The notes under the pieces were generated by a model. It did no database searches and was not told the origin of the DNA. It saw only the letters and a list, made by a program, of their open reading frames with translations. Of a DNA stretch of 64,000 bases, positions 21,550-58,731 are shown one piece after another. The stretch is taken from the NCBI GenBank assembly GCA_963733145.1, contig CAVTCJ010000003.1:222896-286895 (forward strand). The letters are read 5' to 3'. Position numbers and translations under genes: made by a program. Source of the DNA: an uncultured Planctomycetota bacterium (GTDB lineage: Bacteria > Planctomycetota > Planctomycetia > Pirellulales > Thermoguttaceae). Numbering within the stretch: the first letter of the stretch is position 1; every line of letters begins with the position of its first letter.

Positions 21550-21898
21550 TGTAGCACACCCCAGCGTCGGGCGAAAACGCCCGCGGTCAATCGTACTCCC
21601 CCCCGATATGTGCCGGAAACAGCGCGGCTCTCCCCCCGACGGGCGCAGCCGATGAGCGTTTACTCGGCAGACTTTTGCTCGTTTTCTCGATGATTCCTCG
21701 CCGCTCGCGATTTGGCGCAAACCGAATTGAGTTGCGTTTCGCCGCTCGACGTGGTATCATGGTGGGTAGCAAAAGTCGCCGGACCGGGGGTGTCGCTGCG
21801 ACGCAACGCAAGGAGCAAACCAAGACTACGGAGAACACCGACATCCTGTCTGACAATCTTTTCCAGACTTCAGAATCACTCTTATCTTACGCGGGAGG

Positions 21899-26016: not shown

Positions 26017-26020
26017 GGTC

Positions 26021-26971: not shown

Positions 26972-26986
26972 AAGACTCCTCTCGTC

Positions 26987-30576: not shown

Positions 30577-30716
30577 TGGTATAAATACCTATCTCGTATT
30601 ATCGCCTATTAAGTATATCTGATCTGCATGGGCGTGCCAGATATCAATGCCGAAATATGCCATAACAGATTACGGCACAACGCTTTGCAGCGTGCTTTGT
30701 TGGGTGTTTCGTGAGT

Positions 30717-30733
30717 CTGGCACGAGGGCTGCT
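30717..30733 (+). promoter_or_regulatory. sigma54 (-24/-12) promoter for the rtc operon
   Basis: cTGGCACGagggCTGCTa fits TGGCACG-N4-TTGCW with correct GG-N10-GC spacing, oriented toward rtcB. Confidence 0.55.
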
Positions 30734-30804
30734 ATAGGATCATGCCAAGAAACAAAGATGCGACGCAAAAAAACACCCCCCGTAACCGATTTTCCGAGAA
30801 AGCA

Positions 30805-30879
30805 GTCCTTGGAGTGTGGCGGACACCATGCACGCAACTCTACGAAGGTTGAGGACCAGGTTCGACTCCTGGCAAGGAC
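30805..30879 (+). ncRNA. tRNA-like module 1 in the rtc operon leader (perfect acceptor and T arms, non-canonical anticodon region)
   Basis: Acceptor GTCCTTG/CAAGGAC, T arm CCAGG-TTCGACT-CCTGG, short D arm GTGT/ACAC; no foldable anticodon stem; no encoded CCA. Confidence 0.4.
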
Positions 30880-30980
30880 ATTTTGGAAGCAAGATGCGGC
30901 AGGACCAACGGCGCGACTCGCCCCGTCCTCCTATGAGGCGGTCGGCGGTGCGCGTTCCGTGCATGGGTTCTGACCGAAAG

Positions 30981-31052
30981 CCGTGTCAACCTGTGGTTAG
31001 CTCAGTGGGTAGAGCACCAGACCAAGAATCTGGCTGTGACGGGTTCGACTCC
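30981..31052 (+). ncRNA. tRNA-like module 2 in the rtc operon leader (canonical D, anticodon-like and T arms; imperfect acceptor stem)
   Basis: GCTC-AGTGGGTA-GAGC D arm, CCAGA-CCAAGAA-TCTGG, ACGGG-TTCGACT-CCCGT T arm; acceptor CTGTGGT vs ACCAACG has 2 mismatches; position 33 is C. Confidence 0.4.
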
Positions 31053-31448
31053 CGTACCAACGTCGCGGGCCGTAAAACAGCCCGCTACCAAGAAAGCCCG
31101 AGGGAGGCGGGCCAACGTGTGATCGGCCATCGGACTGCTGGCATGTCGGCGTTCGACATGCGGCGTCGATGGCAGCATTTCCGAGCGCCATGCAGTGCGT
31201 GGATACCGATTTTGTCAATCCTCGGCCTACCGGCGATGGATGTCCTGCGAGTTGCGATGGGGTTTGCCCCGTTGGCGACAAGCGTCACAAAACCGCCGTG
31301 TCGGCCGAAGGTCCTGCAGAAACTCAAACGGCACTCCGCACTCGTCCGTGTGATCACCGTTGGTTCCGCCGCCCAACGGCGTTGCCAAACAACAATCCAG
31401 TACACAATTGGAATGACGCAATAACGACCGCAGAAAGGAAGGTGCAGA

Positions 31449-32552
31449 ATGTTGACCAAAAGAATCCGTAAATACGAAGTGGGACTCCACTTCCGTGACG
31501 GCGAGTTCCGCGGCCTGCTCGACACTGGGCACCACTGGTTCTTCGATCCGTTGCGCAAGGTTCAAGTGGAGGTTGTCTCGCAGCGCAGTCCGTGGTTGAG
31601 CCATGAAAAGCTCGACGTGATGGTTAAGACCGGCGTTTTGAAGGACCGCGCCGTCGTGCTCGATCTGAAAGACAATCAGCGGGCACTGGTGTGGATCGAC
31701 GGGCGATTCAGTCACATTCTGCCGCCGGGCCTGTATGCCTACTGGACTGCGTTCCGTGACGTGGTTGTCCAAATCGTCGAGGCCGATGCCCAAAACATCC
31801 GCTTCCAACACAAGGATTATCAGGTCATCGTCCGTTCGGCGATGGCCGACCGCGTGTTGGACACCATCGCCGTCGAGCACGGACAAGTCGGTGTGTTGTT
31901 CCAGGACGGCAACTACGTGGAAACCCTGCCGCCCGGAAAGTACGCCTTCTGGAAGAACGTGGCCAAGGTCGCGCTGGTGCCGGTGGACCTGCGCGAAACG
32001 ATGTTGGACATTGGTGGTCAAGAGATCATGACCGCCGACAAGGTCACATTGCGGCTCAATGCGGTTGTCACATTCCGGGTGACGGATGCCCACAAGGCCC
32101 TTAGCACGACCGACGACATTCGCCAGGCGTTGTATCGCGAGGCCCAGTTGGCCTTGCGGGCGGTGATCGGCTCACGCGAACTCGACCAGTTCTTGGCCGA
32201 CAAGGATGTTGTGGCCAAGGAGTTGGAAGTTACGGTTCGCCAGCGAGTAACGTCGTTGGGCTTAGAAGTCGTTTCACTTGGCATCCGCGACGTGATCTTG
32301 CCCGGCGACATGAAGGATTTGATGAACAAGGTTACGGAGGCGAAGAAGGTGGCCGAGGCCAACTTGATCGCCCGCCGTGAGGAAACGGCGGCCATGCGCA
32401 GCCAGGTCAACACGGCAAAGCTGCTGGAAGGCAATCCGACATTGATGCGGCTCCGTGAATTGGAGGTTTTGGAGAAGGTCGCAGCCAACAGCAAGTTGAA
32501 CGTACTGTTGGGCGAAAAGGGCCTCGCCGAGCGAGTTGTCAACCTGCTCTGA
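31449..32552 (+). CDS. SPFH/band-7 domain protein (no N-terminal TM) encoded first in the rtcB operon
   Basis: C-terminal SPFH core (TADKVTLRLNAVVTFRVTD..ALRAVIGSRELDQFL..GLEVVSLGIRDVILP) plus coiled-coil tail; N-terminal duplicated PPG(L/K)YA(Y/F)W beta modules; RBS gaaaggaagg. Confidence 0.85.
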   Translation: MLTKRIRKYEVGLHFRDGEFRGLLDTGHHWFFDPLRKVQVEVVSQRSPWLSHEKLDVMVKTGVLKDRAVVLDLKDNQRALVWIDGRFSHILPPGLYAYWTAFRDVVVQIVEADAQNIRFQHKDYQVIVRSAMADRVLDTIAVEHGQVGVLFQDGNYVETLPPGKYAFWKNVAKVALVPVDLRETMLDIGGQEIMTADKVTLRLNAVVTFRVTDAHKALSTTDDIRQALYREAQLALRAVIGSRELDQFLADKDVVAKELEVTVRQRVTSLGLEVVSLGIRDVILPGDMKDLMNKVTEAKKVAEANLIARREETAAMRSQVNTAKLLEGNPTLMRLRELEVLEKVAANSKLNVLLGEKGLAERVVNLL

Positions 32553-32560
32553 TCGCTGTC

Positions 32561-32604
32561 GGCCCGGAAGACCGGGCGTTGTCCCGGTCTTCCGGTTGCG
32601 GGCC
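32561..32604 (+). other. perfect 13-bp stem-loop between the SPFH gene and rtcB
   Basis: ccggaagaccggg-cgttgt-cccggtcttccgg; no U-tract, so more likely a processing/stability element than a terminator. Confidence 0.4.
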
Positions 32605-32646
32605 AAAACCTAGCAACTATGCTCCGAATGCCTGCTACAAAAGTCG

Positions 32647-34185
32647 GTGCGAATTGATACAATGGTCATAAAAGAAAGCCAAAGACTCAGCATGACTACT
32701 GAAAACAATCTCACACTGATCCCCACTGGCGAAGCCACGGCCATGCTGCCCGTAGGCAACGGCAGGCCGATCACCGTCATCGGCACTAAAGCGATTCACG
32801 CGACGTTTGACGAGCAAACACTTCGGCAGGCCGTCCATTCGCGGCTCGCGCCGGGGGTGACCGACGTGGTACTGAATCCTGACGCCCACGTGGGCTATGG
32901 GGCGCCGATCGGCTGCGTGATGGTCTCGCCGTCGCACATCTATCCCGGTCCGGTCGGGGTGGACATCAAGTGCTCGATGAGCCTGCTGCAATTGAACGTG
33001 CCGGCCGACGCCATCGCTGAGCGACCGATCCGCCGGGCTTTGATCAACGCCATCTGCGATCGCACTCCCACGGGGCCGGGCATGGGACAACGAAACGTGC
33101 CGAAGTCCCGCCGGGTTGATGCCACTCTTGGCCATCAGGTTGTGATTGAAGGTGCCTCGCCTGCTGTGTGCAACGCGCTGGGTATTCCGACCGACTGGGC
33201 CGCGCGGTGCGAAGATGCCTTCCACACCGGACACGACGAAACGCAAGACGCCCTGGCTGATCGTATCGATCACCTGTTGGCCGTCGGCGCCTTCCCGAAG
33301 TTTGCCGAGAAGATCACGCAACTCGGCTCCTACGGCGGCGGGAACCATTTTGGCGAGTGCGAGGTGGTTCAAGTGGCCGACAACCAGCGGGCACGCGAAG
33401 TCGCCAGCGTTTTCGGTCTGATCGATGGCGACGTGGCGTTCCTCTCGCACTGCGGCTCGCGGGGACTCGGCTACAATCTGGCCTCCGGCCAATTCCGCAC
33501 GCTGCAACAGAAGTTCGAGACTTGGAGCATCCCGCTACCCGGCGGAGATCGGGAGTTGGTCTACGCGCCGCTGGGTACGCCCGAGGCGGACGATTACTTG
33601 GACGACATGGCCTTGGGCGGCAACTTCGCCACGGTCAACCATTTGCTGATCAACGCCCTGGTGCTGGAAGCCTTTCAGGAGGTCATCCCCGGCGTCACGG
33701 GGCAGTTGGTCTACTTCATCAGCCACAATATCGCGCGGAAAGAGGTGGTGGACAATCGGCTGGCGTGGGTCCATCGCAAGGGCGCAACCCGGGCGTTTCC
33801 CGCCGGCCATCACGCCCTGAAGAACACGCCGTTTGCCGAAACCGGCCATCCAATCCTCTTGCCTGGCAATCCCCAGGCAGGATCGGTCGTCATGGTGGCC
33901 GACGAAGGTGCGGTGAAAAGCTGCTATAGCGTCAACCACGGCGCCGGCCGCCAAATGGGTCGCAAAGCGGCAATTCGCGAACTCGATCAGAAGGCGATCG
34001 ACAACCAGTTCGACGCGAACGATATTTTGACAAATTGCCGGCAGTATCCCAAGGACGAGGCCCCGGTGGCCTACAAGGATTTCGACGAAGTCGTTCGGTC
34101 AGTCACAGGCGCCGGATTGGCAAGCGAGGTGGCAAGGCTTCGGGCAAAGTTCGTCGTCAAAGACGCAAGCAAGGCCGACGATTGA
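32647..34185 (+). CDS. rtcB: RNA-splicing ligase RtcB
   Basis: Full-length RtcB with metal-binding histidines and the NHGAGR motif region (SVNHGAGRQMGRKAA). Alternative start at MTTENNL (32692). Confidence 0.95.
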   Translation: MRIDTMVIKESQRLSMTTENNLTLIPTGEATAMLPVGNGRPITVIGTKAIHATFDEQTLRQAVHSRLAPGVTDVVLNPDAHVGYGAPIGCVMVSPSHIYPGPVGVDIKCSMSLLQLNVPADAIAERPIRRALINAICDRTPTGPGMGQRNVPKSRRVDATLGHQVVIEGASPAVCNALGIPTDWAARCEDAFHTGHDETQDALADRIDHLLAVGAFPKFAEKITQLGSYGGGNHFGECEVVQVADNQRAREVASVFGLIDGDVAFLSHCGSRGLGYNLASGQFRTLQQKFETWSIPLPGGDRELVYAPLGTPEADDYLDDMALGGNFATVNHLLINALVLEAFQEVIPGVTGQLVYFISHNIARKEVVDNRLAWVHRKGATRAFPAGHHALKNTPFAETGHPILLPGNPQAGSVVMVADEGAVKSCYSVNHGAGRQMGRKAAIRELDQKAIDNQFDANDILTNCRQYPKDEAPVAYKDFDEVVRSVTGAGLASEVARLRAKFVVKDASKADD

Positions 34186-34212
34186 CCTATTTGTCCACAT
34201 ATCGTTTTCAAC

Positions 34213-35256
34213 ATGAAAGAATCTATCCTCACAATCGACGGCTCCCACGGTGAAGGCGGCGGGCAGGTCCTCCGTTCCTCGCTAGCGATGTCCCTGGTCA
34301 CCGGCCGGCCGTTTGTCATCGAGAACATCCGTGCCGGACGTAAGAAGCCGGGACTCATGCGACAGCACCTCACGGCCGTGAATGCTGCCACGGAGGTCAG
34401 CCATGCCGAGGTCGAAGGGGCCGTGATCGGATCGTCGCGGTTGGAGTTTCGGCCGGGCAAGGTCTCCTCCGGCAACTACACGTTCAGTGTGGGCACGGCG
34501 GGCAGCACGACCCTAGTACTACAAACGGTGTTGCCGGCACTGCTCCTGGCCGAGAGCGAGTCGAATCTGATCCTTGAAGGCGGCACTCACAATCCGTTCG
34601 CGCCGCCGTTGGATTTCCTGATGAAGAGCTATCTTCCCTTGGTGAACCGAATGGGGCCAACGGTTGAGACCCAACTGATCCGACCGGGGTTCTATCCGGC
34701 CGGCGGCGGGCAGTTCACTGTCCGCATTCGGCCAACCCAGCAACTTGGGCGGCTGGAACTCACGGAGCGGGGTGAAATCCGGGCCCGCCGTGTCCGGGCG
34801 GTAGTGGCCAATCTGCCCCGCCAGATTGCCGAGCGGGAATATCGCGCCATTGCTCAGAAGACTGGCTGGGATGAAGGATGTTTTTCGGTCGAAGAAGTGC
34901 GCGAATCGCGCGGGCCGGGCAACATCGTTCTCATCGAGTTGGAGTCCGAGCGCATTACCGAAGTATTCACCGGCTTTGGTCAGATCGGCGTGCGGGCCGA
35001 AGCTGTAGCCATGCGTGTGCTCGACGAAGCTCGCGCTTATCTGGCTGCCGGAGTACCGGCTGGCAAGTACCTCGCCGATCAACTGCTGCTTCCTTTGGGG
35101 ATCGGTGCCCATCTAGGCACTGGCGGTGGCGCCTTTCGGACGATGGCACTGTCGCTCCATGCCACGACGCACATCGAGATTCTCCACCGATTCCTCGAAC
35201 TCGATGCCAAAGTCGAGCAAAACGGCCGAGATGACTTTGTTGTCCAGATCGGCTGA
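34213..35256 (+). CDS. rtcA: RNA 3'-terminal phosphate cyclase
   Basis: MKESILTIDGSHGEGGGQVLRSSLAMSLVTGRPFVIENIRAGRKKPGL is the canonical RtcA N-terminus with the adenylated His region; 347 aa. Confidence 0.95.
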   Translation: MKESILTIDGSHGEGGGQVLRSSLAMSLVTGRPFVIENIRAGRKKPGLMRQHLTAVNAATEVSHAEVEGAVIGSSRLEFRPGKVSSGNYTFSVGTAGSTTLVLQTVLPALLLAESESNLILEGGTHNPFAPPLDFLMKSYLPLVNRMGPTVETQLIRPGFYPAGGGQFTVRIRPTQQLGRLELTERGEIRARRVRAVVANLPRQIAEREYRAIAQKTGWDEGCFSVEEVRESRGPGNIVLIELESERITEVFTGFGQIGVRAEAVAMRVLDEARAYLAAGVPAGKYLADQLLLPLGIGAHLGTGGGAFRTMALSLHATTHIEILHRFLELDAKVEQNGRDDFVVQIG

Positions 35257-35689
35257 ATCAGCGCCTCTGACGCAGCGAACGAGTTGAATCCGGGCGTTGC
35301 AAGCGAGACGCCAACGTGGCAATCATCAGGCATGGGCTATTCCGAATCGGTCTCATCCAGGAATTCGCGAAACAACTCGAATTCTGCCTGAGCCTCGATC
35401 CCAAGCTGATCGAGATCGTCGAAATCGATCTCCGGCATGAGGCCCCCGTGCTCGACATACCGTCCCAGAACCTTCCTGGAGGAAACAACCCACCGCGATT
35501 CTTTTGCCTCTTCAGGCAACTCAACCAGATCCGGATCGACAATCGCTGCAACCCCAGACACGGTCATCGAGATTTCTGGAATATGGCAGCTTGGCATCGG
35601 GTCGTTCTCGTAGCCTCCTTGCTCGTGGAGTTGCCGCGGGTCAAACTCGAAGATCACCGCTGTCTTTCCTGCACGAGCAAGCCTGATCC

Positions 35690-35900
35690 AGTTATGGTGG
35701 ATTCGCTCCTCCGGCGCGCGGCACTGGTAATACCCATTATCACCGTTGGGGCTCTTGTGCTCGCCTTGGCGCAAAACTTTGGAGCGTGGGTGGTTGGTTC
35801 GCAGTGGCAAGATGCAATAGCATTTGTTGTTTTGCTGGCGTTTCTGGTTTTCCGACCAGAAGGCGTGATGGGAAAGAAGGTCAGGGAAGCGACTGTGTGA
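35690..35900 (+). pseudogene. 3' fragment of a branched-chain amino-acid ABC permease (LivH/LivM-like C-terminus)
   Basis: IITVGALVLALAQNFGAWVVGSQWQDAIAFVVLLAFLVFRPEGVMGKK matches the LivH C-terminal helix and RPxG motif. Upstream part of the ORF is non-protein-like. Confidence 0.5.
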
Positions 35901-35927: not shown

Positions 35928-36066
35928 CCTAGCGCGGCTTAGCCGCAACCAATTGTGTCTGGTCTTGGGTCTTAGGTCTTGGGTCTTCGTGCCAAGACCT
36001 AAGACCCAAGACCCAAGACCGTCAAAGATTGAGGACGATTTCTCAATCCCAAAAACTAATGGCATA
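35928..36066. repeat. truncated copy (one TIR + hairpin + internal segment) of the 22224-22525 MITE, inverted orientation
   Basis: cctagcgcggcttagccgcaaccaattgtg, followed by the GGTCTTGGGTCTTAGG hairpin and attgaggacgatttctcaat; matches 22375-22521 as reverse complement. Confidence 0.7.
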
Positions 36067-36502
36067 TCCTGATTCTGATCGGCATCCACACTATCTTGGC
36101 GGTAATCTGTCCGGGGGAGAACAGCAGATGCTCGCTTTCGCCCGCGCCCTGGTCGCAAAGCCCAAATTGCTCATGTTGGACGAGCCTTCCCTTGGCCTCT
36201 CCCCTAATCTGGTGCACAGCGTTTTCGATAAGATCGTAGAGAAAAGAGACAACCCTTCCCGATCAATCTGCGTATGTTCTCTAATATTGCCCTTTTCGTC
36301 CACCCCAATTTGTGCCATATTCACCCACGGCGGTATAAACCAGGATACCGGGATAGGCGTTCTTATCGTGGAACAGAAGGTTCGTGAAGTTCTCAGGGTC
36401 TGCAAGCGAGTGTACTCATTGAAGCTGGGAAAGCTGGCCTTCGACGGTACGCCAGAAGAGCTGCAAGACGACAAAGCGAAACTGAAGGAGTTGTTCTTGT
36501 GA
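36065..36502 (+). pseudogene. 3' fragment of a LivF-like branched-chain amino-acid ABC ATPase with internal corruption
   Basis: LSGGEQQMLAFARALVAKPKLLMLDEPSLGLSP (signature + Walker B), then ~40 aa unrelated, then GVLIVEQKVREVL...LGKLAFDGTPEELQDDKAKLKELFL (LivF C-terminus). Walker A absent. Confidence 0.55.
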
Positions 36503-36957: not shown

Positions 36958-37761
36958 TCAGGCCGCCCGCTTGAGCTTGATGATTGGCAAATGCCGGCGG
37001 CCCTTGTGGAAGCTGACCTCCAACGTCAGCTTGGCACCAGGTCTGCCGCGAACAAGTGCCCAGGGTTTGGCACAAGGCGAGCCCCGCGGCCACCGTGGGC
37101 GCGTTTCGTAGCGTGGCTTGCGGTGGGCGGGATGACTGCCGAAGTAAACTTCATTGGGTGTCTTGCCGCCAAGCCATTCGTGCGGTCGGTGTTGGTTGTA
37201 CCACTCGACTATCGCCGAAAGCTCCTGTTGGAACCTTTCTCGGCGATAGGGAATCAACAACAAACAGCCGAGTAGGGTTTTCAGCGTGAGGATGAAGCGT
37301 TCGACCACGGCGATTGAACCATGTTTGCCGATCGCGCCGAAACGCGGTTTCAGTCCTCGGGGGACACGAACTGATTATGAGACAACAGGTAATCCGGTGA
37401 TTGCTTTAACCAGCCAGTACGACGCCGGCAGCCGATACGCCACGATCGAGAGTTCGGCCCAATGTCATAGTTTGGTGCTGGCTGAGAACCCAAGCGGCTT
37501 CATGCTCGCCGAATCCTTCCTGACGTAGCGTTCGTCCGAGCAGGTCGAGGAAAAAGGGGACATTACGGCATAGTCCGCCTTCTTTACGGCGATGCCAAGA
37601 CACACAAACAGAGTCCGCTCGTTGATGAAGAGAATGCACTTGCGGCGTTTTACGGTGAAGATGTTTCCGTACCAGTCCCCGACCGCCGACGGTGCAACGT
37701 CGTCCATTGACGGATCATCAATGCCGGCAAGTAACCTTGACGTGCAACGAATGACTGACAT
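36958..37761 (-). pseudogene. IS3/IS481-family transposase (integrase-core rve domain) remnant in at least two frames
   Basis: WYGNIFTVKRRKCILFINERTLFVCLGIAV (DDE region) in ORF 37465-37761; ERFILTLKTLL...LSAIVEWYNQHRPHEWLGGKTPNEVY (rve C-terminus) in ORF 36958-37308. Confidence 0.6.
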
Positions 37762-37771
37762 AATCGCCGCC

Positions 37772-38191
37772 TCACACCAGGGTGAACGGGCCTCCGTCGC
37801 CGATGAGTTTCAGACATTCATCAACCGTCAGGTCGGCAAAAATGGTATGCCATTTCTCCGTATGCCGGAAATACGCAAGATTGAATTTCCGCTCGCCGGC
37901 ATACTCCAGCCGAGCGAAGCGGACCTCGAAAGTTGGCGCGGTTCTGTTCGGACCAGGGCTTGCCCAGGTGGAACCGAAGTAGAAGAAGCTCCCGTGCCAC
38001 TTCGTCCAGATTTCGATGGGATAGTTGAAATCGGTATCCGCCGGCGGCGCGGTGATGTACCGAGGCATCAACACCCTTTCCACCAGATCGTTGCCCTTGG
38101 TACGCAATTCTTGTTTGAGCGAATCTGGAATCGTGGGCTTATGTTGCCGATCGGGAGCATAACCCCAAACATAGCCGGTCTTTCTTGCCAT
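37772..38191 (-). CDS. hypothetical protein
   Basis: Start at MARKTGYVWGYAPD; Trp/aromatic-rich; no recognised domain; immediately downstream of the HD gene. Confidence 0.4.
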   Translation of the reverse strand: MARKTGYVWGYAPDRQHKPTIPDSLKQELRTKGNDLVERVLMPRYITAPPADTDFNYPIEIWTKWHGSFFYFGSTWASPGPNRTAPTFEVRFARLEYAGERKFNLAYFRHTEKWHTIFADLTVDECLKLIGDGGPFTLV

Positions 38192-38216: not shown

Positions 38217-38756
38217 TTATCTGTGGATTTTGTCTGGAATGTCGATTCCCCAATCTTGCTTGACCAATTCGGGCACGACCTGGAAACAAGCACGACCATC
38301 CGCCCATTTGAGGATTTCCGGCCGTTTGGCTGCTTCCGTACAAAGCCGTTGTGTATCGGGGCAGATGCCGACCCGCCCCAAGTCCAACCGATCTGAATCC
38401 CAACAGGTCTGCACTGTTACGTCCTGTGCGATTCCGCCATCGGTATGGCTGGCACATGCCTCGTAAAGCAAGTCTAAATCCGCGTTCGACATGGAGAACC
38501 ACTTGCCGCGAAGCTCCACGGCCAGTTTGGCTGCTCGCCTGCCATGCTCGTCATCAATGCCCTCGTTCACTCGTCGAGCATCATGCAAAACGGCGAACAG
38601 TCGCACAACCTCAACGTTTGCGCCGGTTAGTTCAGCGAGCCGATGCCCATTTTCCAGCACCCTTGCCCAGTGGGAAACGCCATGCGTTCCACTGAACGGG
38701 AGAACGTACTGTTCGAGAACTGAGTGAACGATGGGTTTCAGGTCCAGCATTTCCAT
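38217..38756 (-). CDS. HD-domain metal-dependent phosphohydrolase
   Basis: GVSHWARV...FAVLHDARR...CWDSDRLD give the H..HD..D HD signature; directly follows pnkp. Confidence 0.75.
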   Translation of the reverse strand: MEMLDLKPIVHSVLEQYVLPFSGTHGVSHWARVLENGHRLAELTGANVEVVRLFAVLHDARRVNEGIDDEHGRRAAKLAVELRGKWFSMSNADLDLLYEACASHTDGGIAQDVTVQTCWDSDRLDLGRVGICPDTQRLCTEAAKRPEILKWADGRACFQVVPELVKQDWGIDIPDKIHR

Positions 38757-38776: not shown

Positions 38777-41418
38777 TTAGAGCCTCGGATCAACCGGCTC
38801 GCTCTCCAAGGCCAGTACGCCGAAAACGCATTCGTGAACGCGGCGGAGCGGCTCTCGCCGCACGAAGCGTTCGAGGCTTTCGATGCCGAGGGCGAATTCT
38901 CGGAGGGCCAGGGACCGCTTTGTGGCCAAGCCCCGCTTCCGCAGCCGGGAAAGGTTTTCGGGGAAAGTGTATTCAGGGCCGTAGATGATCCGCAGATATT
39001 CGCGCCCGCGGCACTTCACGGCCGGCTGGACGAGACCTTTCGAGCCGGAGGCGATGAACTGATAGGGCTTGACCACCATGCCCTCGCCGCCGCGGCCGGT
39101 CAGTTCCAGCCACCACTCGACGCCCTGCCGCTGGCTCTCGGGATCGGCCAGATCGACGATCTTGAAAGGAGTTGCCATCAACAGCGCCGGATCGTGACGG
39201 CAGATGCCGGCGAGCGTTTCCATGTGCCAGACGTGATTCTGGTCGGTATGGACCGTTCCCTCGGTGGCCATCAGGTGGAACGGGGCCACTTTCAGATCGT
39301 CCAAAGACTTGACCGGCCAGCAATACTGGCGATACGCGCGGACGAATTGGCCGATCGCCTCGCCGCGGCTTTCGTATTGATCCAGCAGGCCATCTATGTC
39401 CGATGCGTAGGACGAGGCATTTGCAGTTGGCGAAGATGGCTCTTGACCGGCCAGTCCGCTCGGCCGCTTGCCGGAGCACAGAGACGGCCTTGGGCAGCGA
39501 GGCTCGGCCCGAAGCCCCCACGGCGGCATACTGCGAGCGAAGCAACTCCTGGGCCTTGACCGACCACGGCATCAATTCGCAATCGAGGCAGGCCCAATCG
39601 GTGTTGAACTGCGTCCAGAAATCGCCGGCGTCCATCGCGGCTCGAATCCGGGCGAGCAACCGTTCCTCCAACTCGCCGTCGGAGAAAAAGCGCCGGCCGG
39701 TGCGAGTAGAGACGATGCCCGTCTCCCCGCCGACTATCCCGAATCGCTGCTGAGCCGCCTCCGCACTCCGGCAGACGATGATGACGGCCCGCGACCCCAT
39801 GTGCTTCTCTTCGCACACGACCTGCGACACACCGCGCGAACGATAGTACGAAAACGCCTCGGTCGGGTATTCGAGAAAGCCGTCCTGGTCGCTCGTTTCG
39901 CACGGCGACATCGTGGGCGGCAGATAGATGAGCCATTTTGGATTGGCGGCGAAGCGGCTCATTATCTCCAAGGCCGCCACGGCGTTTTCCTCGCGGATCG
40001 TCACGCTGGAGCGCAGCCGGGTCGTGATGATCCGCTTGCCGAGCACGTCCTCGGCGTCCAGCAGATCGTCGTGAATCTGCTGGCTCGTCAACGCCGACGC
40101 CTCCGGCTCCTCGGGCAGGAACGGCCGAACCGGCTCGCAGTATGTCCGAGCGGCGGGCACCGACACGAACTCCCGCTCCGGCCAGCGCAGTGCGGTCAGC
40201 TTACCGCCGAACACGCAGCCGGTGTCGATGTTCGTTGTGCGGTTGAGCCATTCCGGCTCGGGAACCGGCGTGTGGCCGTAGACCACTGTCGCCCGGCCGC
40301 GATACTCGGCAGCCCAATTGCAGCGGACGGGCAGGCCGAACTCGTCGGTCTCGCCCGTCGTTTCGCCGTAAAGGGCGAACTCCCGCACCTTGCCCGAGCC
40401 GCGCCCCTGCATCTCCTCTTTCATGCCGGCATGGGCGACCACCAGCTTCCCGTCGTCCAGTACATAATGGCTGACCAGTTCGTCAAGGAAATCGGCCGCT
40501 TCTCCGGCGAGCTTGCGGCGAACGTCCTCGGGCAGGGCCTCGATCTCGGCGAGCGATTCGGCCAGCCCGTGCTTCACCTGGACGTTTTTGCCCCGCAATG
40601 CCCGCATGAACTTCACATCATGGTTGCCGGGCACGCACAGGGCACTACCATCGGTCGACCATGTTGCGCACAACCGAGCGTGTCGAGAATCCGCGGCCCT
40701 CGATCCGACCAAGTCGCCGAGGAACACGGCTTTCCGGCCTTCTGGATGCCGTATAAACCGGTTGCCCCAGACCGGATCGTCGCCATCCCGCTAGACCGGC
40801 ACGATAGCCGAGGTTTCTGGAACAGCGCTTCCAGTTCATCGCAACAGCCATGCACGTCGCCGATGATGTCGAACGGCCCGTGGTCGTCGCGTTTGTCGTT
40901 CCAGAGCGGAACACGCTCAATCGTGACCGCCTCGACTTCCTCGGGCGAGTCGAAGATGAAAACGTGCGAGAAGCCTTCGCGTTTCATTCCTCGGATGGAC
41001 CGCCGCAACTGCGACCGCTGCTGCCGGATCACATGCGGCCCGAAACTGCGGTCTTCCCGCCCCCGGTTCCGCTGCTCGCAAACCTTCTCGGGCAGGTTGA
41101 AGACGATGCGCCACCGGCAGGCAATGCAGTTCCCGAGCAAGCTGCACCAGCGGCTTACGAGCCTCCGGCTGCACGTTCGTGGCGTCCGCAACTGTCAGAT
41201 GCCCCAACGCCAACCGTTTCCGGGCGATGAAATGCAGCAACTCGAACGCCTCGTTGGTCACGGTTTGGTCGTTCTCGTCGTTGCTGAGCATTCCCCGGCA
41301 GGCGTCGGACGATAGTATCTCGGTCGGCAGAAAGTGTCTTGCGGGCAAACGTGCTCTTGCCCGAGCCGCTGGGGCCGATGAGGACGACGAGGGAAAGGCG
41401 AGGAATACTAATGTGCAT
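38777..41418 (-). CDS. pnkp: polynucleotide kinase-phosphatase-ligase Pnkp (bacterial RNA repair), at least 4 apparent frameshifts
   Basis: Kinase P-loop MHISIPRLSLVVLIGPSGSGKSTFARK; phosphatase DIIGDVHGC and GNHD (calcineurin-like); C-terminal ligase/adenylyltransferase region (KVAPFHLMATEGTV..GGEGMVVKPYQF). Pieces lie in ORFs 41155-41418, 40917-41348, 40613-41191, 38973-40727, 38777-39529. Confidence 0.8.
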
Positions 41419-41425: not shown

Positions 41426-42249
41426 CTACCGATGTTGTGAATCCGATGTCTGCATTACCGCACGTTTTCCAGTCTTATCCTCACGAGCAAATCGTTCAAT
41501 GCCGCCGTGCTGGTGGGCGTTTCGGGCAAATGACTCGCCTCGGACGCCGCTTCGAGTTCGCGGCAGAGCCGTTCGTATTCCTGTTCGTGGAATGAGAGAT
41601 CGGCCTGTGCCAATCGACCCTTCTCCGGCCCGGCTTTCTTGCGCTCGATGAACTCGGCAATGTAGGGAAGTCTCGGCCTCTTCGTTCAGACGAACCAAGT
41701 TCGCCTCGACCTCGCCGGTTCGCATCAGATGAATGCCGGTCAGCAGCACGCGGTAAACGTAAAGCAGCGGCTTGACATGCGGCGGGTCTTCCTTCTGAAA
41801 GAGCTTCCATTGCGTGGCCGCGAACCCGAGGTAATGATGGGCGTGATGCCGGGTCAGGCATGCTTCGGCAATCGCCTTCAGTTCCTCGTGATACGGCGTC
41901 GTGTGGACCACCAGCGGCGAAAACACCTGCTCCATCACGTAGCCGTTCTTCCGCAAGCATCAGTCCGAAGAACTTCTTCACATCGTGCGTCACGAGGTCG
42001 ATCTCCACGCCGTCGCGGATGCCCGATTTCGGTGATCGTTTCGCGGCCCGGTTTCAGTCCAACGACTTCCCGCAGCGGCAACACGTGGACGCCCCGCAGA
42101 TCGTAGTCGGAGTCGGGCGAGGGAAACCCATAGAGATGCGCCCCGCTGATCGTGGCGAACACCAACGGGTATGGATGTTCTTCGACCTGCTTGACTAGCC
42201 GAGGATCGCGGGAAACGGCCATTGCTGCGTTTGTGCTGTCGTGCGTCAT
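41426..42249 (-). CDS. PF10127/COG3541-type predicted nucleotidyltransferase, at least 2 apparent frameshifts
   Basis: N-terminal LVFATISGAHLYGFPSPDSDYDLRGVHVLP (GS..YG...SD.D..GV); C-terminal HHYLGFAATQWKLF...KPLLYVYRVLLTGIHLMRTGEVE. Confidence 0.65.
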
Positions 42250-43195
42250 GGTCCAAAGCCCTCCACGGCCTGCCGCCGGGCCTTCACCAGAAACCGATTC
42301 GCCCGCTCGTAATCCGGCCGCTCCGGCAGCGATGTCGTCTCAAACGCCTTGTTGAACTCCTCGTGCAGGGCGAGCCGCCAGCGGTTCACGTCCTCCCACG
42401 GCGTCTCGCCCCGCTTGATTGCCAGCAATGCCTCTCGATGCTCCTCGACCCGGACGGGCACGAATCCTTCACGCAAAACCGTGACGCCGGAAAGCAGCAG
42501 GCGGATCAGGTGCATGACGTGCTTCCATTTGATGTCGCCCTGATTGCGAAGGTGCGCCTGCATCCGCTTGAATTGCGACATGACGTAGCCGTTATATGTC
42601 TGATACACCATGCGTGAGAGAAACGAGGCCCGCATGGCGAGCAGTTCGTCGGCCAGCGGCGTGGTGGTCTCGACCAGCGGCGAGAACAGACATTCCAGCA
42701 CGTTGGGATTCGCCTTGAGCGCCAACACCAAGAACTTCTGGATTTCCCAATAGACCTCTTGGGTAGCGTCGTTTTCGAGTTGTTCGGGCACGCCGTAGAG
42801 CGACCAGTGCAGATCGGCATGGCGGCAGATAGATGCCCCTTCGATCCGTGTCCGAATCGGAATCGTCGAGTCCGTATGCCCGCGAACCGATCACGCATCG
42901 GTAGATGACCCGCTCGTACAGATTGCACTGCTTGGCGGCGATTTCCTCGTGGCCGATCGCGCCTTCCTTGTAGTCGGGCCAGCGCCATGACATCGCGCCG
43001 GGCCAGCGTTGCTTCAACGTCGTCGGGAAAGCGGACCCGGTAGCCCGGCTCGTCGTCCGCCTGTGATCGCACGACAATGCCGACCGCCCCGCGCGGATGC
43101 AAAACGTGCCCCTGGTCCACAACGTCCCTGAGCGCGACCACCTGCGTGCCCGGCGAATAGATCAGGTTCGGATGGAAGTGGACTCTTTTGGTCAC
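42246..43195 (-). CDS. second PF10127/COG3541-type nucleotidyltransferase paralogue with ~70-aa N-terminal extension, at least 2 apparent frameshifts
   Basis: NLYERVIYRCVIGSRAYGLDDSDSDTDRRGIYLPP in one frame; C-terminal NPNVLECLFSPLVE..MVYQTYNGYVMSQF..IKWKHVMHLIRLLLSGVTVLREG in ORF 42246-42791. Confidence 0.65.
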
Positions 43196-43211
43196 GACAG
43201 ACTACTCCTGG

Positions 43212-43609
43212 TTACGTCGAAGCAACACTGTTTGGCGGATTACCGCGCCGGATCACATTGTCTGGGTCGTGCCATTCCATGCCACATGAGAGGCACTGTT
43301 TGGCCTTGGTTGTCCGCAAAGAACACCCGCAATATGGGCAAGGGCAAGTTTTCTCTGGGCCATCGGGATGTGCCACCCATATTTTTGCCCATGAAATGTT
43401 ACATCCCGTGATACGAATTAGCTCCTTGGCAGCAAAAGAGGGCGTTGTTTGGCGAGTTGCCGCAATGATGTCTCTTGTGACGGGGTCAAATCGGCAAAAG
43501 CTGGAATGTGCGTATGGCACTTCTCGCACAATGGCCCACGAGTCGGCCACGCATCGTCGGGCAACGATTCGAGTTCACGGTTCGTGTAGGAATCCATTGT
43601 TATGCACAT
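43212..43609 (-). CDS. hypothetical zinc-ribbon protein (two Cys clusters), one apparent frameshift
   Basis: CEKCHTHIP in the upstream frame; CPCPYCGCSL...CLSCG in the downstream frame. Confidence 0.4.
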
Positions 43610-43647
43610 CCCGATCTATGAAGATTGATTCTGCTGTCCATTATCCA

Positions 43648-45426
43648 TCACGAGTGAAAAGCCGCCTTCAATCCTTCCTGTGATGCCCAGCGGCTGAGTA
43701 CGTCTTTCTCTTTTTCCGTTGCAAGCCGATTACTCTTCCCGCGAACTTGACGGATTTCCCTCCGTTGGTTGTTGACCTCAACAGTCACAAGCGGCTCAAC
43801 CCCTTCTCCCGTTTCAACCTCCATCGACCAAATTGAACACACGTTCTTATAACAGGAATTGGCATAACTCGCGACACAATGGCGCATTCGACGACCTTCC
43901 GCGATCAGTTCCTGACTACTGAGAAGCTCTCGAATCCGCCACACCCTCATGTTTTGCGACTCCTTTGTCCCTTCAATGAACTTGTAGTCGTGGAACGGTG
44001 ATTTTCGCCATTGTAGGCGTCCGCCGGCGGTTTCACGCCCTAGTTGTCGATGCCATTGGTTGACGGCACGCAAGAGTGAAGCGACGGTTCGCCCGTGCAT
44101 GGAAAAGTTGGGCTGTTCCGGCCCAAGTTCTTGTGCCACGCCGCGCTCGATGAAAGCGACGCGGGGTTCATACCGTTGATTCCAGATATAATCGACAATC
44201 GGCTGGACGTGGACGAGATCAAGCATGGGATTCCGCACGAAGAACCGAATGACGCTCAGCCAAAACTCGTTGTCCCGAAAGTCCTGAACGAGTCGTGTCT
44301 CGCGTAACGCATCGGCCAAGCGACGATCACCGCCGAGGGCGATGACCTGCCCCCATCGAAACGCCGCCTCGATGGAATAGGTTGCGGGCGACTCCGAAAA
44401 ATGGTGGGCCATCTTCTTCGTAAACGGAATTGGCAATCCTTCGGCCGTTTGGATGTTTTTGCCGGCCCCAATATGCTTGAACCACGATTGTTGGATGGCA
44501 TTTCCTTGCAGCCAAGCCTTGTCCATGAAAAGAGGCACATCGTAAATCGCCCACAAGTGACGCGATAGCGAAGAAAACTGCCGCTCGGGGTTGTGCGACT
44601 TCGGCGTCCATTGTTCGAGCGGATTGATCCACTCGGCGGCGTCCTTGCTGAGTTCGATGACTCCTCGAACGTGGGCTGCGGACTTCAGCAGTTTTGATTT
44701 TGCATCGACATAACGTAGCATCGCCAAAAGAGCATCTCGATCGACGGCACGCTCAAAGCCCGCATGGATTTCAGAGGCTATGGTCGTATCCAATTCGTCC
44801 TTCGTCAGTTCACCGCGATGGATCAGCGATAGGAGCGAACGATTCTTTCGTGTCTTTTTGGCGTCTGGCAATCGTGAGGCAGCCTGTCGGCTCTTTTCCT
44901 TCTTCTCCGCTTTGGTGGGGACATTTGGATGAACGAGGTGCCTCAACTTGAGGTTTTCGGCCATCTCCCGAAAATTGCCGGCAGCCAAGCCTTCTGCCTC
45001 GCATCGCAACTGGTGAAATAGCTGAATCAAGGGATGTGCCCCATCCAGTTTCAAGGTGCGAAGCCGTCGTTTGCCAAGCCGCCGGTCAAGCATCCCGATT
45101 GTCCGAATGAGAACGTCCTTTGATTGTAGGATGTCATCTATCGACATCGTGAGATAACGTATCATCGCATGGCGAAGACTACCCTTGGCGCACAGAGACA
45201 CATAGTCGGCAAATGGTTTCGGCAAATCCGGTTGATCGACATAGTTTCGCAACATCCATTCATACCAGTGCGGCATGTTGACGATTTCTTGGCCATCAAC
45301 GGTAATCCAATTTCGGCCTTCTTCATCGTGCATTCCGTGATAGCCCGTCTCATGGAGCCGTACACGTCCTTTCACGCTGTCGGCGAACATATCCTCAACA
45401 CGTTTGCGCAATTGGCTCCACTGCAT
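43648..45426 (-). CDS. PcfJ-like domain protein (592 aa)
   Basis: C-terminal LIAEGRRMRHCVASYANSCYKNVCSIWSMEV matches the PcfJ-like E-G-x-x-M-x-H-C-V signature; N-terminal ~450 aa have no assignable domain. Confidence 0.65.
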   Translation of the reverse strand: MQWSQLRKRVEDMFADSVKGRVRLHETGYHGMHDEEGRNWITVDGQEIVNMPHWYEWMLRNYVDQPDLPKPFADYVSLCAKGSLRHAMIRYLTMSIDDILQSKDVLIRTIGMLDRRLGKRRLRTLKLDGAHPLIQLFHQLRCEAEGLAAGNFREMAENLKLRHLVHPNVPTKAEKKEKSRQAASRLPDAKKTRKNRSLLSLIHRGELTKDELDTTIASEIHAGFERAVDRDALLAMLRYVDAKSKLLKSAAHVRGVIELSKDAAEWINPLEQWTPKSHNPERQFSSLSRHLWAIYDVPLFMDKAWLQGNAIQQSWFKHIGAGKNIQTAEGLPIPFTKKMAHHFSESPATYSIEAAFRWGQVIALGGDRRLADALRETRLVQDFRDNEFWLSVIRFFVRNPMLDLVHVQPIVDYIWNQRYEPRVAFIERGVAQELGPEQPNFSMHGRTVASLLRAVNQWHRQLGRETAGGRLQWRKSPFHDYKFIEGTKESQNMRVWRIRELLSSQELIAEGRRMRHCVASYANSCYKNVCSIWSMEVETGEGVEPLVTVEVNNQRREIRQVRGKSNRLATEKEKDVLSRWASQEGLKAAFHS

Positions 45427-45435: not shown

Positions 45436-46861
45436 TCAAGTGTCGAGTGTGACGTTTGCTCCAAGTTTGAACACTCCCATCTGCGTCGGCGGTCCCCACT
45501 CGGCGTGTTCCGGCCCAACTGGCCGAAACTCGACGGAATAACCGAATCGGCTCGGCCACGCCCGTCGCCCAAGCCCGGAACTCCTCCCGAGTCCACTCGA
45601 AACGGTGGTCTTCGTGCCGAAACGCACCGGCGGCAAGGTTGGGCCAGCTTGCATTGTACTCGCGGTTGGGCGTGGTGAGCACGATCGTCGTTGGACGGGC
45701 AAACTCGAACACGACCCGCTCGAAGGCGGCCAGACGCGGCGGATCGAGATGCTCGATTACTTCGACGACGGCCGCCGCATCGAAGCCGGCGAGACGCTTG
45801 TCACGATACATCAGCGAACCGTGCATCAACCGGATGCGCTCGCGTTGGCGCGGCGGCAGGTCGTCCATTCGCAATCGGGACGCGGCGATTTCCAACGGGC
45901 GGATCGACACGTCCATGCCCACGATCTCCTCGAACTGCTTCTCCTTGAGCAATTCCCGCAGCAGCCGGCCCTCGCCGCAGCCGAGGTCGAGCACCCGTTT
46001 GGCGCCGGTCGCCTTCAACACGGCTGCAACCGAACTGAGCCGTTCTTCGTTGAGGCTGATTGGCTTTTCCAGCGATTCTTCGCGGCTCACCGCGCGGGCC
46101 TCGGCAAGAAAATCCTCCGCCGGTTGATCCTCCTGCTCGACAAGCCGCTCGATCGCCTGCCGGGCAAGGCTGGGCCGATGCTTCAAGTAGCGGCGGACAA
46201 TCGCCTCTCGCTTCGGGTGCGACGCCAGCCAGCCCTCGCCCTGTTTCAACAGCTTCTCCAACTCCTCGAAACCCACGTAATAATGCTTGAAATTGTCGAA
46301 AACTGGCATCAAAACGTACAAATGCGTGAGCAATTCGCTGAGCGTCGTGGTTTTCGACAGTGTTACCGAGTAGTAGGGACTTGGCCCCCAGTCGGGAAAC
46401 GTCTCGTCGAGCGGATAGCGGACGGCCTCGATCTCATATCCCAGCGGATCGAAGACCTCGTGCAAGAAGTCCTCTCCGCCCCGGCAGGGAAGCACTTCGA
46501 TCGCGGCGACCAGTGGAATCGGCGTCCCGGCCAACTCCGGCCGCTCCTTCGAGCGCCCATTCAGCGCCGGGCCGAGCACCTGTGCAATCGCCACGCTCAT
46601 AAACGACGACGCCACGTAAGGCCGGTCGTTGACGTACTGGGCCAAGACCGTGTGCGTCAAGCCGCTCTTTCCCCGCACCATCGCCACCGGGTCCACGTCC
46701 AGGAGCAGGGCGGCGGTGCAGCGGTCCTCCGTCGCCTCGGTATAGAACACGTGGGCGCTGCCGAAACTGAGCGGAAAACTCTGGCACCGCGCCGGGTTCT
46801 TGTGCAGCAGATAGCCCAGGTCGGTCGCCGGCCGGTGCGTGGATGTAATTGTCAGCAACAT
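45436..46861 (-). CDS. hen1: bacterial Hen1 RNA 3'-terminal 2'-O-methyltransferase, one apparent frameshift near the C-terminus
   Basis: MLLTITSTHRPATDLGYLLHKNP is the characteristic bacterial Hen1 N-terminus; SAM-MTase motifs VLDLGCGEGRLL, AAVVEVIEHLD; C-terminal YSVEFRPVGPEHAEWGPPTQMGVF in the adjacent frame. Confidence 0.85.
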
Positions 46862-47228: not shown

Positions 47229-48080
47229 CTAGGACGCCTCCCACAGTGGTTCGGAGTAACTTTCGCACCACTGAACGTAATGCTTCCAGCAAACTTGCGG
47301 CGTATTGCCGAGCAACTTGGCCAAGGTCTCGATGGTGGCCGCCCTGCCCGTCCAGTAGCCTTGCAATGTTCGTTTTGCGTAGGTGTGCCGGCAAGAATAC
47401 ATGCAGGCGTCGGCGTCAAACTTTAGGCTTTCTCTTTTCTCAACGCGACGCCGCAAGCGAACGAAAGCTGTTGTCAGGTTGCTCGGCGTCCAAGGCCCCC
47501 CATTACGGTTTCGGAATATCGGCCCCGCCGGGAACTCCTCCATCTGCTGTCGCGTTATGGCAATAATCTCGGGGGCAGTTACCCGGACGATCCGGTACTT
47601 TTGTGTGGTTTTTGTTTTTTTGGGCGTTACCCTCCCCTCCATACGGTTTCCCATATCCGCGATCTGATCCTTCGTCAGTGTGGTAAATTCGATTCCATAC
47701 CGAAGGCCCGTCCGAATGCCCAACCGTGACACGAGGCCCCACATCTGGGCCTCATGGATGACGAGGGCGGGAAACAGCGACAATTACCCTGTAATCAGAA
47801 AGGACTCGTGCTCGATTTCGCTGTCCCGATAGCTAATCACGCCGGCAGAATCGTCCTTGATCGGCGTCACACGCCCCAGCAGAAAATCCGGCAGACTGGC
47901 GAAGTAGTATCCGCCGGCCGTCTCGCCGGAGGAGAGCGGGCCACTAACTAACGGCCGTCCAAAAAAACGACAACGTCGCTTCGCGCTCTCGCCATAATCT
48001 TTCCCGTTCTGGTACAATGGAAGGTAAAAAGGGCAAAGAGGTGCAACGCGGGGATTTTCTGGAACAGGGAGGAACGCCAA
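47229..48080 (-). pseudogene. tyrosine recombinase/phage-type integrase with an in-frame TAA stop
   Basis: Catalytic C-terminal domain with CRHTYAKRTLQG...LLGNT...KHY (R..H..R..Y) in ORF 47229-47783; the N-terminal part in ORF 47784-48080 shares the frame, separated by TAA (..ESFLITG*LSLFP..). Confidence 0.7.
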
Positions 48081-57961: not shown

Positions 57962-58420
57962 TTATTCAGCCAATCGGCTATCTGTCGAAGAGTTTCCCCC
58001 CCTGGCCCTCATCGTGCTGATTGTGGGCAGCAAATCAATATACGCCTCCCGGGCCGCTCGCTTGTTGGCCTCCGCTGCGGCCTTGGCGGCAAGCTTGGTT
58101 CCCATAAGCCTTCGGTCTTCTTGGCCATCCCAATGTCCCGGTCGCGCAGAACCCAATTTTACCCCACGGGCCTTGGCTGCAGCCAGCGCCGCCTTCGTGC
58201 GTTCTGAAATCGCCACGGCCTCGGCTTCAGCTACGGCGGCCAGAATGTGGATGGTCAGTCGGTTGGCGTGCGGGTTGCCGATGCCCCAGATCACCTTCAG
58301 GTCGTGGAAGCCTTGTTCGATGGCGGTCCGATCGGCGAAAGCTTCGAGAATTTTCACAACGCTCGTGTTCGGGTCGGTGCAAAAGAAGAGTTGTGGGCCG
58401 GCGGCTTCCTGAACGATCAC
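57962..58420 (-). pseudogene. gene debris: serine-recombinase (resolvase) fragment fused to an IS4/IS701-type transposase C-terminal fragment
   Basis: [39 protein letters not shown] (resolvase catalytic-domain end) preceded by [18 protein letters not shown]...[15 protein letters not shown] (transposase C-terminal W.IE..F..LK motif). Confidence 0.5.
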
Positions 58421-58731
58421 CACGCGAATCGTACCATAGGCCGGGCGGTAGGTGGCCAAAAAAGCTCTTGTATTGCTTGACCACGGGCTTGCCGTATTGG
58501 ACACAGGGGACGGTTTGCCAGCCGCGGCGGGCCGAAGATTCACGTAGGCCGGCGTCCGCGCGTGGTGCTGAAAGCCGCCCCCCTCGTGCGCCTCCTGGAG
58601 CAGACCCGCGCAGCGACTGAGATCGACCGAAAAGCCGATATCCAGCGCGTAGTACAAATGGCAGCAGCCACGGACAACAAGCCCGGCGGTTTCATTAGAC
58701 GTCATGGTCCGTTTTCACTCCACGTGTTCTC

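Follow-up and report, generated by a model that had tools for sequence, protein, structure and literature searches.

Bacterial RNA-repair operons are modular counter-measures to ribotoxins, and their accessory parts are mostly uncharacterised. In the Pnkp/Hen1 system, of the Clostridium thermocellum and Anabaena type (PMC3675462, PMC4411300), others have shown that Pnkp removes the 2',3'-cyclic phosphate, phosphorylates the 5'-OH and seals the ends, and that Hen1 2'-O-methylates the junction nucleotide. A further activity, the addition of one or two nucleotides to an RNA 3'-OH, has been shown for nucleotidyltransferases of the RlaP family. We consider here a cluster in a 64,000-nt stretch of DNA (the window) from an uncultured Planctomycetota bacterium (contig CAVTCJ010000003.1) that shares with the Pnkp/Hen1 system a modular Pnkp, a Hen1 with Hen1_L and methyltransferase regions, and a co-oriented arrangement. 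Unlike that system, four genes separate hen1 from pnkp in this cluster, two more follow pnkp, and the frames are shifted as sequenced. We regard it as probably an enlarged Hen1-to-Pnkp RNA-repair operon from a Pirellulales-like planctomycete. In the order of the minus strand, its eight co-oriented genes are:

45436-46861, minus strand: hen1, RNA 3'-terminal 2'-O-methyltransferase and Pnkp partner (474 aa corrected; Hen1_L)
43648-45426, minus strand: SF0329 + PcfJ-like protein (592 aa, intact; Pfam and NCBIfam matches)
43212-43609, minus strand: small Zn-ribbon protein (about 131 aa once 1 nt near 43439 is restored)
42246-43195, minus strand: RlaP2 nucleotidyltransferase with an N-terminal extension (315 aa corrected; Pfam RlaP, 3.2e-50)
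41453-42249, minus strand: RlaP1 nucleotidyltransferase (263 aa corrected; Pfam RlaP, 2.8e-58)
38777-41418, minus strand: pnkp, polynucleotide kinase-phosphatase-ligase (about 880 aa corrected; TIGR04075)
38217-38756, minus strand: HD-domain phosphohydrolase, 20 nt downstream of pnkp (Pfam HD, 3.8e-5, 24.4 bits, cutoff 22)
37772-38191, minus strand: DUF3024 protein, the last co-oriented gene (Pfam DUF3024, 5.8e-12)

The two genes that define the system lie on the same strand, 4 kb apart. The hen1 product has both the Pnkp-associating N-terminal region and the methyltransferase (Pfam Hen1_L, 2.5e-110, with Methyltransf_23, Methyltransf_12 and Methyltransf_25). The longest pnkp fragment, of 584 aa, matches TIGR04075 at 1.8e-204 and 681 bits, which falls under the full-length cutoff of 750 because the match covers the fragment only. 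Corrected Pnkp is 90% identical to an intact 878-aa protein (P0121) with AAA_33, Metallophos and PNKP_ligase domains, and its kinase, metallophosphatase and ligase modules are all present, with the Hen1_L and methyltransferase regions encoded beside it.

An earlier note on this stretch had picked out the four co-oriented genes between hen1 and pnkp, all of which are present on the minus strand; its inventory did not include the SF0329 domain or the HD and DUF3024 genes, nor a second repair operon in the window. The note had also proposed that the genes form one operon, and the short co-oriented junctions are consistent with this. These range from a 4-nt overlap to 38 nt: the PcfJ-like open reading frame (ORF) follows hen1 after nine nt, and the RlaP2 stop overlaps the RlaP1 start in an ATGA at 42246-42249, as had been noted. 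The gene end placed at 41426, with its 7-nt gap, proved to be a wrong-frame artefact; the corrected RlaP1 stop is at 41453-41455, and the pnkp ATG at 41418 lies 34 nt further on. A sequence scan of the cluster was uninformative, in that it found terminator-like and promoter-like sites no more often than in shuffled sequence; none lay at the junctions. It is plausible, on the layout of the DNA, that the cluster is a single transcription unit.

A more serious question is whether these genes are functional, since as sequenced the PcfJ-like gene is the sole open frame among the genes tested and five genes are broken. Neither hen1, with one frameshift, nor pnkp, with seven or more, has an open, translatable frame. 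We mapped the frameshifts by aligning the window to two related loci (loci are numbered with an L), L116, which has intact genes at about 85% nucleotide identity, and L002, which is 82-91% identical by segment. Single-nucleotide insertions were located in hen1 (at about 45555), RlaP2 (42973 and 42819), RlaP1 (42029, 41957 and 41676) and pnkp (seven or more, including 41341, 41109, 40816, 40804, 40706, 40655 and 39454), together with a 2-nt deletion in pnkp near 40675 and a 1-nt deletion in the Zn-ribbon gene near 43439. Fourteen of the 15 frameshifting indels are single inserted bases, and they are not limited to homopolymer runs. The corrected frames contain one remaining stop, between two close pnkp insertions of approximate position, and no other lesion, and the key motifs that were inspected are all retained in the corrected proteins. 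The ratio of nonsynonymous to synonymous divergence (Ka/Ks) from L116 after correction is 0.08-0.16 for all four genes, with hen1 at 0.08. Since near-exclusive +1 insertions extending beyond homopolymers coincide with strong purifying selection, assembly error is the better reading, and we are fairly confident that the frameshifts are sequencing or assembly errors.

If the indels were instead real, the operon would be dead. On this alternative the cluster is a decaying pseudogene island in which only a recently acquired PcfJ-like gene still functions. One argument for it is the distribution of the lesions: about 14 frameshifts fall in the 5.9 kb of hen1, RlaP2, RlaP1 and pnkp, while the 1.8-kb PcfJ-like ORF, in which about four would be expected, is free of them (P ~0.015), a mild oddity for the error reading. 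The intact block also coincides with a recently exchanged segment (see below), integrase and transposase gene fragments flank the cluster, and many long genes elsewhere in the window are full length, e.g. HutH, HutU, RtcR and a carbamoyltransferase. Gene decay in bacteria, however, would be expected to favour deletions, which is not the pattern seen here, and the absence of in-frame stops and truncations after correction, outside the one spot in pnkp, and the Ka/Ks values also speak against decay. Moreover, hen1 is likewise split in a related long-read contig, and unrelated genes in the window are split too. Codon-usage frame tracking across the window was too noisy, and the latter were recognised by Pfam coverage checks:

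20275-21720: split amidohydrolase (20.3-21.7 kb)
25372-26016: split ADP-ribosylglycohydrolase
27402-28745: second split ADP-ribosylglycohydrolase
57962-58705: split resolvase

Indel noise in the window is regional, not uniform. We consider decay of the operon improbable, and proceed with the corrected proteins on the reading that the frameshifts are errors.

Both nucleotidyltransferases belong to PF10127, which Pfam names 'RlaP, RNA repair pathway DNA polymerase beta family'. Corrected RlaP1 scores 198 bits over profile positions 8-249 of 249 and corrected RlaP2 171.6 bits over positions 18-248 (cutoff 23 in both cases). The Pol-beta catalytic motif reads SGAHLYGFPSPDSDYD...THD in corrected RlaP1 and GSRAYGLDDSDSDTD...WE, GS...DSDTD in corrected RlaP2, the third acidic residue having been assigned by eye in each. 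The earlier note had linked these enzymes to steps outside the characterised Pnkp/Hen1 pathway, but RlaP is already a named RNA-ligase-associated family, its name and predicted partnership with RNA-repair ligases going back, according to the papers that cite it, to Burroughs and Aravind (2016). In a December 2025 preprint, Carruthers et al. report that two Pseudomonas RlaPs add one or two nucleoside monophosphates (NMPs) to an RNA 3'-OH, propose that RlaP counters ribotoxins that trim nucleotides after cutting, and note that RlaP genes occur with 5'-phosphate ligases too. The suggestion that the two genes here serve 3'-end nucleotide addition agrees well with this activity.

The locus shares with the described family the full profile, the catalytic acidic residues and an RNA-ligase neighbour. 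In contrast to the characterised Pseudomonas RlaPs, which are single genes in RtcB-RtcA operons, there is here a tandem pair of distant paralogs, one of them extended. Two PF10127 genes are indeed present, but to call them duplicated is misleading: RlaP1 and RlaP2 share only about 28% identity, against 53-79% between each of them and its own orthologs, and are thus old paralogs that have been kept as a pair. The tandem pair recurs in the hen1-pnkp operons of L116, L117 and L118 and in the RtcB operons of L006/L008 and L025; the adjacent repair ligase is accordingly Pnkp in the window and in L116-L118, and RtcB in L006/L008 and L025. The additional N-terminal domain of about 70 residues that the earlier note had seen on the second enzyme measures about 75-90 residues and is common to its 314-316-aa orthologs in L006, L117 and L118, and the upstream RlaP of tandem pairs regularly bears such an extension. 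It is probably a small domain, with sub-threshold similarity only, to DUF4926 and DUF1918. In the literature we searched, no description of RlaP pairing or of the N-terminal extension was found. A pair of distant paralogs bears on how lost nucleotides are faithfully restored, an issue that the single-enzyme biochemistry did not address. Two variants of the pair were seen elsewhere. In L006/L008 (7380-8576) the RlaP1-like protein of the RtcB operon is fused to a C-terminal cupin domain, and in L121 (2232-2738) a 168-aa ORF looks like a deletion derivative of the pair, in which the extension and start of RlaP2 run on into the C-terminal end of RlaP1.

Comparison of the planctomycete relatives L116-L121 indicates that the interval between hen1 and pnkp acts as a variable slot that collects accessory repair genes. 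Its contents, listed from the empty form upward, are:

L119: empty, with hen1 and pnkp 53 nt apart
L120: one unknown gene
L118: HEAT_2, RlaP, RlaP, orf143
L116: DUF5677 (PADLOC DitA, 1e-45), RlaP, orf128, RlaP
L117: AAA_33 kinase, Thg1 (Zn-ribbon-fused), RlaP, RlaP, HEAT_2
L121: Zn-ribbon, chimeric RlaP remnant, HEAT_2 (the contig ends before pnkp)

L119 is the canonical two-gene form, and the genes of the window do stand as an insertion relative to this minimal arrangement, as had been supposed. The interval can be seen as a natural catalogue of candidate repair cofactors: a Thg1::Zn-ribbon fusion, HEAT proteins, DUF5677, an extra kinase and the PcfJ-like gene. In L116, the closest pnkp relative, a DUF5677/DitA-like protein fills the slot (6358-7851), and defence-type genes can therefore also lodge between hen1 and the RlaP pair. 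In L002, the closest relative, a 114-aa ORF without a family match (2681-3025) separates hen1 from the PcfJ-like gene; the window lacks this ORF and has 28 nt in place of about 370 nt.

The small protein encoded after the PcfJ-like gene was called a Zn-ribbon from its CxxC motifs, and these are present, one at the N-terminus and a CxxC...CxxC at the C-terminus, separated by three helices. The assignment depends on these motifs, as the Pfam Zn_Ribbon_1 match (E = 1e-3) is below cutoff. The family is rare, with 12 matches, and has invariant Cys and His residues, the cysteines being consistent with two zinc sites; no structural neighbour was found in the PDB. L002 has an intact 137-aa ortholog, and in L121 the Zn-ribbon gene directly follows hen1. 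A link to a known enzyme comes from L117, where a Thg1-like 3'-5' polymerase with a C-terminal Zn-ribbon fusion (5843-6982), preceded by a small AAA_33 kinase, occupies the slot of the window's PcfJ-like gene. Along its entire length the window protein matches residues 255-374 of this Thg1-like protein at 63% identity.

The largest of the inserted genes encodes the 592-aa PcfJ-like protein, which carries EGRRMRHCVASY. The PcfJ assignment, like that of PF10127, passes profile searches above cutoff: PF14284 matches residues 497-575 at 2e-14 and 54 bits (cutoff 25), over profile positions 67-145 of 147 only. The N-terminal residues 2-142 form an SF0329 domain (PF25753, 4.7e-35, 121.6 bits, cutoff 27; NCBIfam NF049912, 121.1 bits, cutoff 60), which is followed by a charged helical linker and a conserved core at about 266-590 with the motifs E510-G-x4-H516-C517...C525 and Q560-x-R-G563. 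Nearly all of 218 close homologs are SF0329+PcfJ proteins of about 590 aa; a shorter form of about 478 aa lacks SF0329. An alignment of 51 sequences has 45 invariant columns, many of them polar. The wider family is large: a profile search of 50%-identity cluster representatives yielded 9,285 matches at E <= 1e-3 and 2,134 at E <= 1e-30. Bacillus phages and huge-phage contigs encode C-terminal PcfJ domains, PHROGs matches are to phage families of unknown function only, a plasmid database gave only N-terminal SF0329-like matches, in Priestia, and a scan of a genome collection found one relative only.

The earlier note had taken this signature as one associated with conjugative plasmids. The window protein shares with PcfJ of the Enterococcus plasmid pCF10 the C-terminal domain of about 80 residues with its EGxxMxHC motif. 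It differs in its 592-aa length, its SF0329 N-terminal domain and its large conserved helical region, and the Pfam-scanned ORFs of the window include no conjugation genes and nothing resembling the pCF10-type transfer operon. The plasmid association does not hold here; instead, the kin of this gene often lie beside RtcB, PrfH, RlaP and tRNA arrays.

What the protein does is less readily approached from its fold. The AlphaFold2 (AF2) model has a pLDDT of 86. Foldseek of the model against the PDB gave no significant match, and a profile search of PDB sequences gave low-complexity noise only. A GNAT-like half-fold in the PcfJ domain is a weak signal in the model that we treat as a lead only, and in our own reading Q560-x-x-G563-x-S may correspond to GNAT motif A. 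The C-terminal half of such a fold is missing, because the model ends after the would-be alpha3 helix, and there is no complete beta1-beta7 core with the acyl-CoA site; Pfam acetyltransferase families gave no match even at E <= 1.

Gene neighbourhoods provide the new lead. We screened 115 PcfJ-like loci by tblastn and iterated hidden Markov models, and counted neighbours in the 57 non-redundant metagenome loci whose flank reached 1.5 kb or more. RtcB, PrfH, RlaP or Hen1 lies within 3 kb of the PcfJ-like gene in 20 of the 57, usually 30-370 nt away and on the same strand. Unsupervised clustering of the neighbours placed RtcB first (19 loci), followed by Band_7/SPFH (9), RlaP (7), HNH (7) and PrfH (6), the Band_7 gene being immediately upstream of the PcfJ-like gene in all nine of its loci. 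Three to twenty tRNA genes occur within 5 kb at 13 loci, about 10 of them non-redundant and five of them viral contigs (L006/8, L032/33, L037, L040, L056, L082, L084, L088/89, L091 and L095), and in viral contigs of 54-495 kb the PcfJ-like gene is embedded within the tRNA array. In L006/L008 the order is tRNAs, Band_7, PcfJ-like, RtcB, RlaP, RlaP. Environmental bacteria and huge phages carry the close family, on chromosomes or on mobile elements.

Two groups of described systems come near this context. Related PcfJ-like loci have the companions of the tRNA L-arrays (2021, PMC8421152), namely HNH, rtcB and 3-20 tRNA genes; the window itself has no array, only one or two tRNA-like genes some 12 kb away from the PcfJ-like gene. 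The genes named in that work are HNH, rtcB, dpsA and those for hypothetical proteins, all4315 among them, and PcfJ is absent (PMC8421152). In Anabaena hen1-pnkP and rtcB respond to ribosome-targeting antibiotics (PMC8421152), and all4315 is co-regulated with the L-array. At other loci PcfJ-like genes sit within the neighbourhoods of the Band-7/SPFH-RtcB systems and of the RtcB-PrfH systems, which have accreted accessory genes (PMC6514570). The latter work mentions an unnamed protein near PrfH-RtcB with no detectable homologs and highly charged helical regions, which might belong to the PcfJ-like family. In the literature searched, PcfJ was not found as a named component of the Band-7-RtcB or PrfH-RtcB systems, nor was any link of PcfJ to RNA repair or tRNA arrays. 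The RlaP family is already known, and the operon architecture is a new version of a familiar type. The connection of PcfJ to RNA repair and tRNA arrays is a testable lead; it would give a large family a tRNA/RNA-repair and tRNA-array context in place of the 'conjugative plasmid protein' label.

We put forward, tentatively and as less likely than not, a broader proposal: that the PcfJ-like protein is an unrecognised, widespread and fast-evolving core component of tRNA repair or replacement modules in bacteria, mobile elements and huge phages, and that the conserved RlaP heteropair, alongside it, is a two-enzyme, CC/A-adding-like system that would rebuild excised anticodon-loop or 3'-end nucleotides. 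Several observations weigh against the main reading itself, an enlarged repair operon with the PcfJ-like gene as an integrated part. About two thirds of the PcfJ-like loci with adequate flank lack a nearby repair gene, and none of 24 non-redundant viral loci has one, so the family can work alone. Cooperation between RlaP1 and RlaP2 is drawn solely from their conserved adjacency. In addition, the history of the PcfJ-like gene is decoupled from that of its neighbours. The PcfJ-like gene of the window differs from that of L002 by a Ks of 0.15, and hen1 by one of 0.91. Across seven Band_7-PcfJ-like-RtcB loci, identities of Band_7 and RtcB are correlated (r = 0.88), whereas those of the PcfJ-like protein follow neither Band_7 (r = 0.26) nor RtcB (r = 0.15). 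Such a genealogy fits a mobile cassette as well as an integrated part.

This brings us to a rival view, in which the PcfJ-like gene is an autonomous mobile conflict gene with an anti-defence, defence or toxin role, perhaps joined by the first half of the Zn-ribbon gene. It would land in recombination-prone variable regions, among them this slot, tRNA arrays and defence islands, as cargo whose function does not depend on Pnkp, Hen1 or RlaP. In favour of this view, the window and L002 are 93-97% identical in the block 45442-43477 and 67-86% in its flanks, and Ks is six times below that of hen1. Within the Band_7-PcfJ-like-RtcB loci nucleotide similarity falls at the borders of the PcfJ-like gene, which is far more diverged than the genes on either side; between L037 and L056, for instance, Band_7 is 84% identical, RtcB 88% and the PcfJ-like protein 42%. 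Solitary or mobile settings also exist, in L003, where the gene stands alone between peptidase M16 genes, and in L004, where it is beside an integrase and DruA, and the phage-borne C-terminal domains and the DitA-like defence protein among the occupants of the same hen1-pnkp slot point in a similar direction. On the other hand, the position and strand of the Band_7-PcfJ-like-RtcB arrangement are fixed although its PcfJ-like proteins are only 42-73% identical, and the slot has therefore long been occupied, not hit at random. The gene is also linked to four different repair components, RtcB, PrfH, RlaP and Hen1. The protein has no PADLOC match (nor do the Zn-ribbon, RlaP, HD and DUF3024 proteins) and no recognisable nuclease or toxin motif, and it is under purifying selection (Ka/Ks 0.08-0.13). 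We judge an autonomous mobile gene rather unlikely. The PcfJ-like gene does appear, from these comparisons, to evolve or be exchanged much faster than its neighbours, and a conserved core on a fast-changing or replaced background, which is typical of conflict-facing proteins, fits an integrated factor and mobile cargo alike.

Returning to the PcfJ-like protein as a component of repair modules, we suggest how the cluster might work. Ribotoxins of a 'smart' kind would trim nucleotides from the tRNA that they have cleaved, and the RlaP pair, acting together or in sequence, would rebuild the missing nucleotides ahead of the finishing steps by Hen1 and Pnkp. The HD protein could add a 3'-end phosphoesterase activity. 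The Zn-ribbon protein, whose relative is fused to Thg1 in a related operon, might be a small adaptor module, presumably binding RNA or a partner protein. The PcfJ-like protein would be a true member of the tRNA/RNA-repair set, an accessory that diverges fast, is exchanged laterally and keeps a conserved polar core, and would most likely serve as an enzyme or as a specificity factor, its target being either damaged tRNA or the attacking toxin. On the broader and less likely proposal above, candidate roles are an enzyme with a conserved His-Cys/Arg pocket on a GNAT-like half-fold that reverses or pre-empts a class of tRNA damage, or a ribotoxin recogniser.

A second RNA-repair operon, apparently intact, lies 9 kb from the cluster at 28963-35897, the two making up an RNA-repair region of about 18 kb. 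Its recognised features are:

28963-30576, minus strand: RtcR, sigma-54 activator of RNA-repair operons (Pfam RtcR, 1.4e-83, and Sigma54_activat)
30805-30879: second, weaker tRNA-like match (23 bits), 110 nt upstream of the next
30991-31064, plus strand: tRNA-like gene upstream of Band_7 and RtcB (ARAGORN, Leu(AAG))
31449-32552, plus strand: Band_7/SPFH (Pfam)
32647-34185, plus strand: RtcB (Pfam)
34213-35256, plus strand: RtcA (Pfam)

An unassigned 209-aa ORF follows RtcA, and RtcR is divergent from the tRNA-like gene or genes. The gene at 30991-31064 probably encodes a tRNA-like RNA rather than a decoding tRNA, because it has C for U at position 33 and a short variable arm in place of a long one. 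Burroughs and Aravind are said to have described, in 2016, Band-7/SPFH-RtcB systems with a tRNA-like RNA. The window's Band_7 protein is 83% identical to that of L006/L008, which directly precedes the PcfJ-like gene there; the set of parts found together in L006/L008 is, in this genome, split between two operons.

Several minor features of these regions may be recorded. In L003, at 9367-13373, the PcfJ-like gene and a following 70-aa ORF lie between the two peptidase M16 genes and resemble a solitary insertion. A homolog of the DUF3024 protein lies 2.9 kb downstream of the PcfJ-like gene in L066. At 25372-28745 of the window a NUDIX ORF (26021-26971) is situated between the two frameshifted ADP-ribosylglycohydrolase ORFs, one of which continues in frame into a YdjM-like region; over its N-terminal 117 aa the NUDIX ORF shares 52% identity with orf128, the ORF between the RlaP genes of L116. 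Mobile-element and gene debris around the cluster, at 24701-25375, 36029-36502, 36958-37308 and 47229-47783, comprises fragments of a DDE transposase, of an ABC ATPase (with an odd internal segment some 35 aa long) and of an rve integrase, together with a 184-aa ORF that resembles a truncated tyrosine recombinase but has no Pfam match.

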